In this document: positions 2,290 through 4,917 of the stretch, piece by piece
How positions within the stretch are numbered: the first letter of the stretch is position 1
Layout of the letters: each line of letters starts with the position of its first letter
Source of the DNA: a virus
Taxonomy: Duplodnaviria > Heunggongvirae > Uroviricota > Caudoviricetes
IMG/VR virus record: IMGVR_UViG_2534682255_000020
Length of the DNA: 4,917 nt
Direction: 5' to 3' (one strand)
Made by a program: the position numbers and the translations under genes
Notes under the pieces: generated by a model
The model's database searches: none
Seen by the model: only the letters and a program-made list of their open reading frames with translations
Told to the model about the DNA's origin: nothing

Positions 2290-2715
2290 TTAATGCACAG
2301 CCAGAGTGTTTCCTGCCGGGCCACCACGATTCATCTGATCGAACAGAACGATCGCTGATGCAACGAAATCATCAATATCTTTCACCAGCCGTTCCTTCGT
2401 CTCTACCAACTCCCGAAAATAAGCGGAACTGTGGCTGCGCATTCGGGCCACCAGCGGAGGCGGCATCGCTTTTTCGATCGCTGGTAACAACGCCTGAATT
2501 TTTTTAACCGCATCAGGAGTGTCTTTCTCCACCCAGCGGAAAATTTTCTGAGTATTGCGAGCCATGGCTTCCGGATGGCTGTCGTCATACAGTTCCGGGA
2601 ACGTCATTCCCAGCTCGAAATACGCTTTGGTAATTTTCGCAGCCGGTACTTTTTCGCCGTCCGGATGCGCCCAGACATTCATCGCCATGCGGATGTGTTC
2701 ATGCTTGATTTTCAT
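2290..2715 (-). CDS. ydaT: YdaT-family protein (CII-like early regulator, sometimes annotated as toxin YdaT)
   Basis: 141-aa ORF beginning MKIKHEHI..., matching the N-terminus and length (about 140 aa) of Rac prophage YdaT as I recall it. Its ATG overlaps the stop of the upstream Cro-like gene (ATGA at 2715-2712). Confidence 0.8.
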   Translation of the reverse strand: MKIKHEHIRMAMNVWAHPDGEKVPAAKITKAYFELGMTFPELYDDSHPEAMARNTQKIFRWVEKDTPDAVKKIQALLPAIEKAMPPPLVARMRSHSSAYFRELVETKERLVKDIDDFVASAIVLFDQMNRGGPAGNTLAVH

Positions 2716-3014
2716 GAATCAACTCCATCAGATAAGCATGCACTACAATCACCTTCAGCATGAACTACATGTGTTTGCCCCAAACGAATGCCGCTCGCAT
2801 ACTCAGGCCAAATAAGCTCCCAATCATGGGGTCGTAGCTCCGCCCTACTTACTTGGCCTTCCGTCGCAGATTCGATCATAAGGGCGCGGGTTGGAGATAT
2901 AGCTGTTCGTCCAGACGCCATTTGCGATAAGTAAGATGGCGATACACCAAGTCTGGCCGCGAATTTCTTAGCATCACCAACCCTTAATGATTTAATAAAC
3001 TCTTTTAATGTCAT
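2712..3014 (-). CDS. ydaS: YdaS-family Cro-like HTH DNA-binding protein
   Basis: 100-aa ORF MTLKEFIKSLRVGDAKKFAARLGVSPSYLSQMASGRTAISPTRALMIESATEGQVSRAELRPHDW... with an HTH-like segment (AARLGVSPSYLSQMASGR). GAGGAAGG SD immediately upstream of ATG 3014-3012. First gene of the minus-strand operon, divergent from the regulator gene, as for cro. Confidence 0.8.
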   Translation of the reverse strand: MTLKEFIKSLRVGDAKKFAARLGVSPSYLSQMASGRTAISPTRALMIESATEGQVSRAELRPHDWELIWPEYASGIRLGQTHVVHAEGDCSACLSDGVDS

Positions 3015-3023
3015 ACCTTCCTC

Positions 3024-3090
3024 GGTTTAGTGTTTTTTTGCGAGTTTAGTGTTTAATAAACCATTAAGTCAAGTATTTGCTTGTTTAGTG
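3024..3090. promoter_or_regulatory. Operator-like direct repeats GTTTAGTG x3 in the divergent intergenic region
   Basis: GGTTTAGTGTTT 3024-3035, AGTTTAGTGTTT 3043-3054, TGTTTAGTGATT 3082-3093, arranged across the putative divergent promoters as in a lambdoid OR region. Confidence 0.5.
3043..3072 (-). promoter_or_regulatory. PR-like promoter for the ydaS-ydaT-rep-dnaC operon (-35 TTGACT, -10 TAAACT)
   Basis: On the minus strand: TTGACT (3072-3067), 18-nt spacer, TAAACT (3048-3043), followed by the leader and GAGGAAGG SD of the Cro-like gene. The -10 overlaps a GTTTAGTG operator-like repeat. Confidence 0.45.
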
Positions 3091-3105
3091 ATTACTAAAG
3101 ATAAT
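3077..3105 (+). promoter_or_regulatory. Candidate PRM-like promoter for the regulator gene (-10 GATAAT 3100-3105; weak -35 TTGCTT 3077-3082); possibly leaderless transcript
   Basis: GATAAT ends 6 nt before ATG 3112 and there is no SD upstream of that ATG, which would fit a leaderless mRNA as for lambda cI from PRM. The -35 is poor. Confidence 0.3.
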
Positions 3106-3111
3106 TACCAC

Positions 3112-3483
3112 ATGCAAAAAAAAGAAATTCGCCGTTTACGTCTCAAGGAGTGGTTTAAAGATAAAACTCTGCCACCCAAAGAGAAGAGCTACCTATCTCA
3201 ACTAATGAGTGGGAGAGCCTCGTTTGGAGAAAAGGCTGCCAGAAGAATAGAGCAAACATACGGGATGCCGGAAGGGTATCTGGATGCGGAATACGCAGAA
3301 CAACCGGGGGGTTCTCCACCACATGCAGGGTTAACGTCTAATCAACTGGAATTATTGCAGATTTTTTCAGCCTTCCCTGAGGATGAGCAACGCCAGATAA
3401 TCAGCGAGTTAAAGCAGAAAAAAGAATCAATGGAAGATCTCATAGCGAGATGGATTGCGGCGCAAAAATGCCGCCGCGCCTGA
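3112..3483 (+). CDS. paaR2: PaaR2-like transcriptional regulator (123 aa); first gene of the three-component TA operon and candidate prophage repressor
   Basis: ORF 3049-3483 (GTG start in the track); I prefer ATG 3112 (MQKKEIRRLRLKEWFKDKTL...). Contains an HTH-like segment (SYLSQLMSGRASFGEKAARRIEQTYGMPEGYLD). Lies directly upstream of the antitoxin and toxin genes, divergent from the Cro-like gene. Confidence 0.7.
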   Translation: MQKKEIRRLRLKEWFKDKTLPPKEKSYLSQLMSGRASFGEKAARRIEQTYGMPEGYLDAEYAEQPGGSPPHAGLTSNQLELLQIFSAFPEDEQRQIISELKQKKESMEDLIARWIAAQKCRRA

Positions 3484-3503: not shown

Positions 3504-3695
3504 ATGAATAGAGCCCTTTCACCAATGGTTTCTGAATTTGAAACCATTGAACAAGAAAACAGTTACAACGAATGGCTGCGTGCGAAAGTAGCAACGAGCC
3601 TTGCAGATCCGCGCCCAGCAATTCCCCATGACGAAGTTGAGCGCAGAATGGCAGAACGCTTTGCTAAGATGCGCAAGGAACGGAGCAAGCAGTAA
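3504..3695 (+). CDS. paaA2: PaaA2-type antitoxin (63 aa) of a ParE-family toxin
   Basis: MNRALSPMVSEFETIEQENSYNEWLRAKVATSLADPRPAIPHDEVERRMAERFAKMRKERSKQ; exactly 63 aa, charged and helix-prone, the length I recall for PaaA2. GGAGG SD 4 nt upstream of the ATG. Stop TAA 3693-3695 lies 1 nt before the toxin ATG. Confidence 0.8.
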   Translation: MNRALSPMVSEFETIEQENSYNEWLRAKVATSLADPRPAIPHDEVERRMAERFAKMRKERSKQ

Positions 3696-3696
3696 A

Positions 3697-3975
3697 ATGT
3701 TACCCGTGTTATGGCTTGAAAGCGCAGATACCGACCTAGATGATATAACTAGTTATATTGCTCGTTTCGACATAGATGCGGCTGAACGCTTATGGCAGCG
3801 ATTAAGGGGTTGTGTGCTGCCGTTATCCGAACATCCGTATTTATACCCACCAAGCGACAGAGTACCTGGCTTGCGTGAGATTGTAGCCCACCCTAACTAT
3901 ATAATTCTATACCGCGTAACAACATCAAGCGTTGAAGTAGTAAACGTGATCCACGCAAGACGCCAGTTTCCCTAA
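3697..3975 (+). CDS. parE2: ParE-family type II toxin (92 aa), ParE2-type
   Basis: MLPVLWLESADTDLDDITSYIARFDIDAAERLWQRLRGCVLPLSEHPYLYPPSDRVPGLREIVAHPNYIILYRVTTSSVEVVNVIHARRQFP; the C-terminal signature (GLREI...YRV...V.V.NVIHARR) is typical of RelE/ParE-fold toxins. Tightly coupled to the upstream antitoxin gene. Confidence 0.85.
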   Translation: MLPVLWLESADTDLDDITSYIARFDIDAAERLWQRLRGCVLPLSEHPYLYPPSDRVPGLREIVAHPNYIILYRVTTSSVEVVNVIHARRQFP

Positions 3976-3993
3976 CTTTCACTACCAATAGAA

Positions 3994-4040
3994 ACATAAC
4001 AACCGCAACGACTTTATCAAAAGCGTTGTGTTTGTTATGT
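3994..4040 (+). terminator. Imperfect 17-bp stem / 13-nt loop hairpin downstream of parE2 (candidate terminator of the TA operon)
   Basis: ACATAACAACCGCAACG (3994-4010) pairs with CGTTGTGTTTGTTATGT (4024-4040) with one mismatch and one G-U. It starts 19 nt after the parE2 stop. There is no U-tract immediately after the stem; a T-run lies at 4052-4057. Confidence 0.4.
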
Positions 4041-4045
4041 CCCGC

Positions 4046-4090
4046 GGTTTAGTTTTTACTTGACTTAAGTTTAATGTTTATTAAACTAAA
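4046..4090 (+). promoter_or_regulatory. PL-like outward promoter and operator module (GGTTTAGT repeat, -35 TTGACT 4060-4065, palindrome AGTTTAAT-gttt-ATTAAACT 4068-4087, -10 TAAACT 4082-4087)
   Basis: This segment is a near-identical inverted copy of the PR-like module at about 3043-3075 (shared TTTAGT, TTTAATAAAC, ATTAA and TTAAGTCAAGTA blocks). It contains a perfect 8-bp-arm palindrome. Confidence 0.45.
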
Positions 4091-4323
4091 AATACCAACC
4101 ACCCCGCCCCACAGAACGCAGGGAAATACTTCGAGTTACCCGGCAGTGGTCAGGGGTTAAGTAGCCAGCCCGAGGCGTATGAACATGACGGCAGGGTTCA
4201 ACTTTAATAACTATGCAGCAGTTTTTTGTTCCGCTACCCCGGCGTTAAGGGGAAACAGAGGGTTTCTCAGTGGGCGAAGTCAAACATCAGAATGGAAGGC
4301 ATCCCGGGATCGGCAAAGAAGCA

Positions 4324-4358
4324 GCAATGGCGCTTTATATTGACATCAGCGCCATTGC
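4324..4358 (-). terminator. Perfect 11-bp inverted repeat (GCAATGGCGCT - 13 nt - AGCGCCATTGC); candidate terminator of the zinc-ribbon gene or a protein-binding palindrome
   Basis: Stem 4324-4334 / 4348-4358, GC-rich, about 45 nt downstream of the minus-strand stop at 4405. On the minus-strand RNA it is followed by UGCUUCUUUGCCG, only moderately U-rich. Confidence 0.4.
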
Positions 4359-4404
4359 AGGACAGGTAAGAGTTATCAGAGCGGTAACTAAGCGGTATGC
4401 GCCT

Positions 4405-4605
4405 TTACTTCAGAAAGTCTCTGGTGAGTGCACCGAAGATATTGTCAACGATTTCGTCATCGAACTGCGAGGACTCATCTTCAGTTACAAGGTGACCACA
4501 ATTTTTGCAGATGGCTCCCGCGAAACTGTCAGAGCCCTGCGGCTTAAAGGATGTGTCAAAGACTTCGCCACCACATTCTGGGCAAGAAAACTTGATTGTA
4601 TTCAT
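4405..4605 (-). CDS. Small zinc-ribbon protein (66 aa; CPECGG ... CKNCGH), function unknown
   Basis: ORF 4405-4611 in the track (TTG start); I prefer ATG 4605-4603 (MNTIKFSCPECGGEVFDTSFKPQGSDSFAGAICKNCGHLVTEDESSQFDDEIVDNIFGALTRDFLK), preceded by a strong GAGAGGAA SD with a 7-nt spacer. Two CxxCG knuckles about 20 residues apart and an acidic C-terminal tail. First-position G is about 36% of codons. Confidence 0.6.
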   Translation of the reverse strand: MNTIKFSCPECGGEVFDTSFKPQGSDSFAGAICKNCGHLVTEDESSQFDDEIVDNIFGALTRDFLK

Positions 4606-4697
4606 AACCAATTTCCTCTCGAGTAACAGACCCCTCAGAGGATACCACCTCGCCTGACGTGGTTAAAAGCAGGCAACGCTAACCACAAGGAGCCGAC

Positions 4698-4916
4698 ATG
4701 CAGAAACGAGACCCCGTCATCATCGCGCCAGACTATACCGATGATGAACTTTATGAGTGGATGCACCAGAAAATTAATGCAGCGCAGGATCTGAAATGGG
4801 CCAATGAAGCCAGGGCTAAGCAGGCTGAAAATCTGTCCGCTCTGGAGCAGGATATCACCAATCTGGAAAAAGCAGCGGCATTAAGCATTGCCAGAATGAT
4901 TACATACCCGCGTTAA
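4698..4916 (+). CDS. Hypothetical protein (72 aa), likely first gene of the early-left-type operon
   Basis: ATG 4698 preceded by AAGGAG SD with a 5-nt spacer; MQKRDPVIIAPDYTDDELYEWMHQKINAAQDLKWANEARAKQAENLSALEQDITNLEKAAALSIARMITYPR; stop TAA 4914-4916. No family recognised. Confidence 0.5.
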   Translation: MQKRDPVIIAPDYTDDELYEWMHQKINAAQDLKWANEARAKQAENLSALEQDITNLEKAAALSIARMITYPR

Positions 4917-4917
4917 T

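Follow-up and report, generated by a model that had tools for sequence, protein, structure and literature searches.

Can two protein-coding genes occupy the same DNA, one entirely inside the other and on opposite strands? The question is raised by positions 4327 to 4626 of a 4,917-nucleotide stretch (the window) taken from the Caudoviricetes record IMGVR_UViG_2534682255_000020 of the IMG/VR database. The window spans the immunity and early genes of an Escherichia coli O157:H7 prophage of the lambdoid, dicB/Qin type and is 99.9% identical to many complete genomes. It contains a minus-strand open reading frame (ORF) for a 66-residue zinc-ribbon protein, and the whole of this ORF lies within a longer plus-strand ORF, called here the long ORF (for coordinates see Table 1). 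An earlier reading, made from the sequence alone, had pointed out that a plus-strand ORF at 4270-4626 covers the same DNA, and had regarded the locus as ambiguous. The plus-strand ORF exists and the ambiguity is real, but this ORF is not a rival that has to be eliminated: because there is selection on both frames, the answer is "both", not one strand or the other. The presumed competitor appears to be a gene too, which would make the two a fully nested, in-phase antisense pair conserved across genera. Comparison of the homologous loci shows selection acting to keep both frames, which occur together throughout the detectable family. The reading that we favor, and consider probable, is that 4327-4626 is a nested antisense protein-coding pair, which lies behind a repressor-controlled early-left promoter and whose members would be used in different prophage states.

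Two reading frames on the same DNA

The zinc-ribbon protein (MNTIKFSCPECGGEVFDTSFKPQGSDSFAGAICKNCGHLVTEDESSQFDDEIVDNIFGALTRDFLK) contains two CxxC knuckles, CPECGG and CKNCGH, about 21 residues apart, and has an acidic C-terminal helix and an isoelectric point (pI) of 4.2. The ORF, its knuckles and its Shine-Dalgarno (SD) sequence (GAGAGGAA, 4620-4613 on the minus strand, 7 nt 5' of the ATG) were all found where the sequence-only reading had placed them. Nearly every lineage has an equivalent SD, AGGAGG or GAAGGA, with a degraded version in lineage L117. Taken by itself, the gene is a member of a family that has already been named. Residues 4-59 align with profile positions 1-56 of the 60 in NCBIfam NF047912 (ECs_2282_CxxC) with 57.3 bits (E=1e-15; curated cutoff 37 bits), and the protein differs by at most one residue from proteins of O157:H7 genomes to which the Prokaryotic Genome Annotation Pipeline (PGAP) gives the product name 'ECs_2282 family putative zinc-binding protein' (WP_001092153). 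The family entry consists of the name alone, with no function, expression data or opposite-strand overlap on record.

The proposal that the minus-strand ORF is a genuine gene was examined by looking for loss of the cysteines in homologous prophages, and all four are kept. In a ten-sequence alignment of homologs at 60-70% identity, which come from Citrobacter, Klebsiella and Enterobacter prophages, C8, C11 and C36 are invariant and C33 is found in at least 90% of the sequences; at this level of identity the motif SDSFAGA..C..CGH.VTEDE does not vary either. The cysteines are also kept at 45-52% identity. All four are present in lineages L114-L118, L123, L125 and L126, and apart from one aberrant sequence they do not vary in relatives from other enterobacteria or in unattributed contigs from metagenomes or read assemblies. 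Because the NF047912 cutoff is passed and the four cysteines are kept in homologs at 45-70% identity, we regard the zinc-ribbon ORF as genuine, and as more than a chance open frame.

An exhaustive hidden Markov model search identified 66 cluster representatives of similar zinc ribbons, mostly 60-75 aa long. The 20 best of these share F.CP.CG...[DE][DE]F.GA.C..CGH.[IV]TE[DE][DE]I, followed by a C-terminal helix; ten of the 20 were scanned against Pfam, and none scored above threshold. The existence of a wider family of zinc ribbons of about 65 aa means that the fold exists independently of the overlap described here. The window protein has the two CxxC knuckles in common with generic zinc ribbons and rubredoxin knuckles (Zn_Ribbon_TF, Zn_ribbon_3, DUF5795, Lar_restr_allev), but it does not reach any Pfam gathering score (the first three models match it below threshold only), and the C-terminal helix together with the motif [DE][DE]F.GA.C..CGH.[IV]TE[DE] define a separate family that has no Pfam model. 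The AlphaFold model of the protein (mean predicted local distance difference test, pLDDT, 54.7) is too poor to judge a Cys4 fold. Restriction alleviation of the Lar/Ral type was considered and rejected: phrog_6422 matched at E=0.0098 with no aligned stretch passing, and PF14354 matched below its cutoff, and in distant relatives only. The best PADLOC match, PDC-M14A (E=0.0019, 16.5 bits), was not significant. A scan of species-representative genomes returned only two zinc-ribbon matches, both unrelated, and DNA scans with single proteins of the wider family gave either no match or CPNCGH motifs inside large unrelated proteins.

The long ORF covers the zinc-ribbon ORF completely and in phase. 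The two ORFs share their codon boundaries, position 2 standing opposite position 2 and positions 1 and 3 being swapped, so that every codon difference can be scored in both frames at once. Read from GTG 4270 the long ORF encodes 118 aa (4270-4626); the extension in front of ATG 4327 occurs in E. coli-type modules only and is variable. We rejected GTG 4270 as the conserved start, since a 1-nt deletion breaks the frame of the extension in the widespread ompW-prophage lineage, which keeps the rest of the ORF, and since other genera start at the position of ATG 4327. The long-ORF protein is basic (pI 8.9), and AlphaFold predicts for it an arrangement of helices, a beta-hairpin and a helix (pLDDT 69; predicted template modelling score 0.50), with the highest confidence inside the overlap. 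The position of the ORF suggested a lambda N-type antiterminator. This candidate was discarded: there is no Pfam or NCBIfam match, the N-terminus (MALYIDISAIAGQ) lacks an arginine-rich motif, and the protein is predicted to be folded, although no nut-site search was made. PADLOC found no match for the long ORF. Homology searches have given the zinc-ribbon protein its family, NF047912, but nothing specific on the function of either protein, including the part in host takeover or anti-defence that the sequence-only reading had raised, emerged from Pfam, PHROGs, PADLOC, PDB sequence and fold searches.

PGAP calls either one strand or the other, and where the zinc-ribbon frame has a nonsense mutation it switches to the 99-aa protein WP_001240336, with the result that both strands of this DNA are represented by proteins in RefSeq. 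Deposited phage genomes (e.g. Evi and the PPompW phages) annotate the long ORF only. Since the strand choice of PGAP hangs on a single nonsense mutation and the phage records give the long ORF only, one gene of the pair would always be missing from each record.

The two ORFs go together wherever they were found. Both are intact in the intermediate loci and in the most distant ones (L123, L125 and L126). In the latter the long-ORF protein is 37-41% identical to that of the window and has kept its SD and ATG, and the antisense frame is uninterrupted, coding for 66 aa that include all four cysteines, CGH.VT and an acidic tail. The motif TL.VD.SA..AQ...V..V.....PLL is recognizable in long-ORF proteins at this distance. 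None of the loci examined has one ORF without a trace of the other, and in all of them the nested pair is the first unit past the repressor and PL in the early-left direction, whatever the repressor type or the downstream genes. Of the 45 unique sequences, all have an intact long ORF and 43 an intact zinc-ribbon ORF. Decay was seen in the zinc-ribbon frame only: 19 of 109 sampled loci have a nonsense mutation in it (E14* in 18 contigs; E44*, a long-ORF-silent change from CTC to CTA, in one, L090), and E14* is also present in one of the two copies of the module in strain EDL933; in this copy and in the 18 E14* contigs the long ORF is intact.

The two EDL933 copies lie at 1848502-1848801 (copy 1, L121) and 2344277-2344477 (copy 2, L122) of NZ_CP008957.1. 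Copy 1, in the ompW prophage, has both the E14* mutation and the 1-nt deletion in the GTG 4270 extension, whereas copy 2, near ynfA, matches the window and is intact. The copies are a natural knockout/wild-type pair inside one strain.

Selection on the zinc-ribbon frame and on the long ORF

The comparative set consisted of the homologs at 60-70% identity, about 100 further loci from IMG/VR contigs, and four intermediate and three very distant lineages obtained in searches with the long-ORF protein. Selection was analyzed on a tree of 45 unique sequences by a simple neighbor-joining/parsimony reconstruction, with the plus-synonymous sites outside the overlap as neutral proxy. Changes in the overlap that are synonymous in one frame and alter the other protein are called here long-ORF-silent and zinc-silent. 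Pairwise OLGenie-style ratios (dNN/dSN and dNN/dNS, where N and S stand for nonsynonymous and synonymous in each of the two frames) were computed, but were not used as independent proof for either frame, because NN sites are mostly second codon positions. We relied instead on the SN/NS asymmetry, on the non-overlapping codons as neutral proxy, on stop avoidance and on the conservativeness of replacements.

Judged by its substitution pattern, the zinc-ribbon frame is the more strongly constrained frame within the overlap. Its ratio of nonsynonymous to synonymous substitutions (dN/dS) is 0.27 (0.16-0.41), versus 0.62 for the plus frame. Long-ORF-silent changes, which alter the zinc-ribbon protein, amount to 1.46 per site. 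This is 2.4-fold less than the 3.54 of the neutral proxy (ratio 0.41, p=1e-6) and about half of the 2.96 found for zinc-silent changes in the overlap (ratio 0.49, p=1e-5); the depletion is the opposite of what a plus-strand gene alone would predict. One stop codon was observed in the zinc-ribbon frame versus 10.5 expected (P=3e-4). The cysteine codons alternate between TGC and TGT, an exchange that replaces Ala by Thr in the long-ORF frame, but they never undergo long-ORF-silent changes.

The long ORF has signatures of its own. Its strong SD and its ATG are kept at the same alignment position beside unrelated upstream DNA. The long-ORF frame has a dN/dS of 0.26 (0.12-0.50) over its 26 non-overlapping codons; in the control frames of this stretch the value is about 0.9-1.45, except in the expected wobble-echo frame. 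An event-based N/S for the same codons is 0.40 (p=1e-7), and they show synonymous wobble (CTC/CTT/CTG, GAT/GAC, GGN, CAA/CAG, CCN). At deep divergence, identity at the three codon positions of the long ORF is 56/60/42% outside versus 51/81/63% inside the overlap, and the periodicity flips at the zinc-ribbon stop codon. Between distant loci identity is random past the long-ORF start and past the zinc-ribbon start, which lies at the long-ORF stop; in a later gapped alignment about 75 nt past the long-ORF stop were conserved too. Within the overlap, 7.8 zinc-silent events creating a stop in the long ORF were expected and none was observed (P=4e-4, or about 0.0015 when transition bias is taken into account in a hand estimate). 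TCA, TTA and CTA are absent from the 446 Ser/Leu codons of the zinc-ribbon frame, whereas the other genes of the window use these for 24%. The zinc-silent replacements in the long-ORF protein are more conservative than mutation predicts (BLOSUM62 0.87 vs 0.23, P=4e-4).

How strong is the constraint on the long-ORF protein inside the overlap? Zinc-silent changes that alter it show no significant reduction in rate relative to the neutral proxy (0.83, p=0.26), and within E. coli their rate is 1.18 of the proxy, thus protein-level constraint on the overlapped two-thirds of the long ORF is weak or mild. A rate indistinguishable from the proxy would also be expected if only the zinc-ribbon protein were functional, and if the long ORF were translated so that ribosomes cover the first approximately 300 nt of the early-left transcript, protecting it from Rho-dependent polarity or antisense pairing and leaving the overlapped amino acid sequence largely free. 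In line with this, omega of the long ORF is about 0.93 within E. coli, continuity of the ORF is its strongest signal, and it has no family, fold or structure match. We nevertheless consider this explanation unlikely, because the 26 non-overlapping codons are constrained at the protein level, the long-ORF motif survives at 37-41% identity, the replacements in the overlap are biased towards conservative ones, and the AlphaFold model is most confident precisely inside the overlap.

It could also be argued that the zinc-ribbon gene is the only real one. Non-coding constraints, for instance from a 3' untranslated region or terminator hairpin of the zinc-ribbon mRNA, together with a frame that is open by chance, would then account for the long ORF and the conservation of its N-terminal stretch. 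By chance alone, in-phase antisense frames are open more often than any others, the non-overlapping stretch has a conserved hairpin core (GGCGCT...AGCGyC), and PGAP prefers the zinc-ribbon ORF. Non-coding constraints, however, would leave unexplained that substitutions in the non-overlapping stretch follow a three-base period in the long-ORF frame and are most frequent at position 3, that SD and ATG are retained next to unrelated DNA, and that stops are avoided by omission of codons which neighboring genes use freely; we think it very unlikely that the long ORF is maintained in this way.

The converse view, that only the long ORF is a gene and that the zinc-ribbon frame is a shadow ORF conserved as a by-product, can point to phage records and most metagenome gene callers, which annotate the long ORF only, to a homologous module that matches its start and stop exactly, to nonsense mutations that affect the zinc-ribbon frame at 19 of 109 loci and never the long ORF, and to a documented transcription start site (TSS) on the long-ORF strand only, but it is scarcely tenable in the face of long-ORF-synonymous sites that evolve 2.4-fold more slowly inside than outside the overlap and 2-fold more slowly than the zinc-silent ones, the reverse of its prediction, of the periodicity flip at the zinc-ribbon stop, of cysteine codons free of long-ORF-silent changes, and of a conserved SD before the zinc-ribbon ATG and a wide family of similar proteins.

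Transcription signals and the use of the two strands

The sequence-only reading was right in placing the zinc-ribbon ORF antisense to a PL-like promoter: the promoter (4060-4087) is on the plus and the gene (4405-4605) on the minus strand. Copies of an operator-like motif, GTTTAGTGTTT, at 4047 and 4069 flank the -35 element of this promoter, and the motif occurs three more times in the intergenic region between the cro-like gene and the repressor (3025-3093); only 2 of 200 shuffled sequences reach five matches. This distribution supports the reading of the PL-like promoter as repressor-controlled. The copies are all in the same orientation, i.e. they are direct and not inverted repeats. In EDL933 copy 1, Cappable-seq located a TSS at 1848930, 129 nt upstream of the long ORF, in all nine conditions (PMC10469882 supplement). 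It is preceded by a TTGACC/TAAATT promoter analogous to the PL-like promoter of the window. There is no TSS for copy 2 among the entries listed in the same supplement, and the supplement of PMC4765031 has no entry for the zinc-ribbon strand.

A promoter-like element also faces the zinc-ribbon gene. In all lineages but L002 and L003, conservation within the module is highest in the approximately 75 nt that precede the zinc-ribbon ATG, a block with TT[AC]ACC, a 16-nt spacer, TGG+TATC[CT]T and the SD. In the window the -10 element of the predicted zinc-ribbon promoter is TGGTATCCT. A 37-nt core of the block, AGGATACCACCTCGCCTGACGTGGTTAAAAGCAGGCA (4639-4675), is present at 100% identity in about 1000 E. 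coli genomes that do not have the zinc-ribbon module; in these, ydfA/ydfB replace the module in the dicB operon and the core lies between ydfB and dicB. The 37-nt core is a backbone element, for which we infer a role as the zinc-ribbon promoter.

In locus L120 the minus-strand features next to the 37-nt element (2501-2537) are AAGGA and then the ATG of an ORF for a hydrophobic protein of 106 aa (2146-2466), which has no family match. As this ORF is unannotated and has no family match, it lends weak support to the promoter function. Of two hairpins within the element, GCCTG...CAGGC and ACCAC...GTGGT, only one can form at a time; in L123 the GCCTG hairpin reads GCCGG...CCGGC, which could be a compensatory change. 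A boxA-like sequence beside the conserved element in L004 is absent from other lineages and was judged coincidental, and an Rfam scan of 3900-4917 found nothing credible as an RNA explanation of the conservation.

The palindrome that the sequence-only reading had described as the zinc-ribbon gene's own is present as a perfect 11-bp palindrome, but it is a shared element. On the minus-strand RNA it lies 47 nt beyond the zinc-ribbon stop and is followed by GCUGCUUCUUUG; on the plus-strand RNA its 5' arm contains the ATG of the long ORF, and therefore it is not simply the terminator of the zinc-ribbon gene. It reads better as an element common to both strands that also sequesters the long-ORF ATG. 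Other genera keep only a 5-8 bp core of it (GGCGCT...AGCGyC). A weak hairpin with a T-run (4090-4118) could end transcripts running in the zinc-ribbon direction short of the PL promoter.

Under our reading of the locus as a nested protein-coding pair, transcription of the zinc-ribbon gene while PL is repressed would start at a sigma-70-type promoter of its own, making it an accessory gene expressed in the lysogen. Upon derepression, transcription from PL would run head-on through it, expressing the long ORF and silencing the zinc-ribbon gene by collision or antisense pairing. The use of the two genes in different prophage states is what we infer from this arrangement. Several observations weigh against the reading. 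The case for both proteins being made is comparative throughout. The zinc-ribbon gene is a pseudogene in about one-sixth of the sampled copies. On the side of the long ORF, the rate of zinc-silent changes is, as described above, not significantly reduced, and the predicted model matched no known fold in fold searches. It must be noted that the tree is a simple neighbor-joining/parsimony one while the sequences recombine, and that the neutral proxy comprises only about 19 synonymous sites. The promoter-like element, which occurs without the zinc-ribbon gene in the genomes mentioned above, may serve the early-left transcript instead. A strict division between lysogenic and lytic use is at odds with the PL-side TSS, which EDL933 copy 1 shows in all conditions. 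There is no zinc-ribbon-strand TSS among the EDL933 entries listed in the PMC10469882 supplement, but this absence is uninformative.

One may speculate further that the acidic zinc-ribbon protein and the basic long-ORF protein work as a pair linked to the decision between lysis and lysogeny, sharing a target or acting on each other, perhaps in an exclusion/anti-exclusion relationship like that of sieB/esc or in a toxin-antitoxin relationship. We assign this idea a low probability. If it were true, head-on transcription of one 300-bp segment would ensure that no more than one of the proteins is made at a time, and the locus would be a compact, deeply conserved two-state switch encoded on both strands.

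Related systems and the surrounding locus

It is worthwhile to compare the locus with sieB of lambda and P22, which likewise points against PL and adjoins the first early-left gene (N in lambda). It is this analogy that suggests expression of the zinc-ribbon gene in the repressed prophage. Lambda sieB abuts N without overlap, whereas the zinc-ribbon gene is nested in the long ORF. SieB is larger and belongs to a different family, the zinc-ribbon protein is small, acidic and soluble-looking, and Pfam and PHROGs searches detected no sequence relationship between the two. The two can occur side by side: in the Enterobacter prophages L008 (4323-5300) and L009 a SieB gene is located directly upstream of the zinc-ribbon gene on the same strand, and that of L008 is a true SieB gene by its Pfam score (74 bits). 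For these Enterobacter prophages, one gene caller extended the zinc-ribbon ORF with sequence from upstream, so that a 99-aa protein (P0009) resulted.

A parallel in arrangement is the olg1/gene 10 pair of Pseudomonas phage Fc02, an antisense protein-coding overlap in the lysis-lysogeny control region of a temperate phage, with one gene in a lysogen-expressed operon and the other in an early lytic operon (PMC9936078). Fc02 is Mu-like, its proteins are unrelated to those described here, and its pair was studied by RNA-seq and exclusion assays; in the present case the evidence is comparative, and the small gene is nested fully and in phase. Antisense overlapping genes have also been described in E. 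coli O157:H7 (ano, asa and three EDL933 genes; PMC5960689, PMC6294744, PMC9927249). They share with our pair the organism group and the embedding of an ORF antisense in another gene. They are described as novel ORFs in annotated genes, supported mainly by RNA-seq and Ribo-seq, whereas the pair studied here is co-conserved across several enterobacterial genera down to 37-50% identity and has a separate selection signature in each frame. We did not find the locus in the literature searched, including that on O157:H7 antisense overlapping genes.

Claims of fully overlapping antisense genes in bacteria are contested, chiefly because evidence of conservation is missing for most of the candidates; the present pair has it. 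The module is present in 937 of 5426 complete E. coli genomes (~17%), and together with the two EDL933 copies, one of them a natural zinc-ribbon knockout, this makes it an unusually tractable test case. Lambdoid phages carry regulators and exclusion genes at this site beside PL, so that either protein could affect induction or superinfection.

Table 1. Coordinates of the nested ORFs, the transcription signals and the neighboring genes in the window.
Feature	Position	Strand	Remarks
Zinc-ribbon gene, 66 aa	4405-4605 (ORF 4405-4611, ATG at 4605)	minus	ORF list, NCBIfam, PGAP
Long ORF, 99 aa, WP_001240336, PHROG 21318	4327-4626	plus	First cistron of early-left (dicB-type) operon
Optional N-terminal extension of long ORF	4270-4326	plus	GTG start, SD AGAGGG
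PL-like early-left promoter	4060-4087	plus	TTGACT, 16 nt, TAAACT
Weak terminator-like hairpin with T-run	4090-4118	minus	z = -2.0, consensus match only
Perfect 11-bp palindrome, 13-nt loop	4324-4334 / 4348-4358	both strands fold	
Promoter-like element facing zinc-ribbon gene	4639-4666	minus	-35 TTAACC (4666-4661), 16-nt spacer, extended -10 TGG+TATCCT (4647-4639)
Replication-initiator gene (O-like)	458-1660	minus	
Unassigned gene	1767-2276	minus	
YdaT/CII-like gene	2290-2715	minus	
Cro/YdaS-like gene	2712-3014	minus	
DicA-related putative repressor	3112-3483	plus	
PaaA2/RelB-type antitoxin (63 aa) and ParE toxin (92 aa) pair	3504-3975	plus	
ydfC	4698-4916	plus	Downstream of long ORF

In the complete genomes dicB, a DUF1482 gene, an exonuclease gene, xis and int are the next genes past the window. 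The putative repressor has no Pfam helix-turn-helix match and is labelled 'hypothetical protein' by PGAP; the DicA model matches only its C-terminal residues 72-119, with 28 bits versus a cutoff of 101, and its ORF can be extended upstream as far as GTG 3049. The toxin-antitoxin pair fills the slot between the repressor and PL, i.e. the slot of rexAB in lambda. In relatives the same slot holds other cargo, namely HigBA (L117), a YedD-like gene (L123) or an HSDR_N restriction-like gene (L007), and in the ompW-prophage copy it is empty. Between the ParE stop and the PL operators there is an imperfect inverted repeat (3994-4040; 22-nt arms, 82% complementary, 3-nt loop), which may be the terminator of the repressor-toxin-antitoxin transcript; its sole Rfam match, a microRNA at E=0.056, was judged spurious. 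Inside the replication-initiator gene several near-repeats of AAGCCCCTT / GAAGCCCCT, at approximately 1075-1110 and 1335-1370, adjoin a low-complexity run of (EQ)n codons and resemble an origin of the iteron type lying within the initiator gene, as in lambda.

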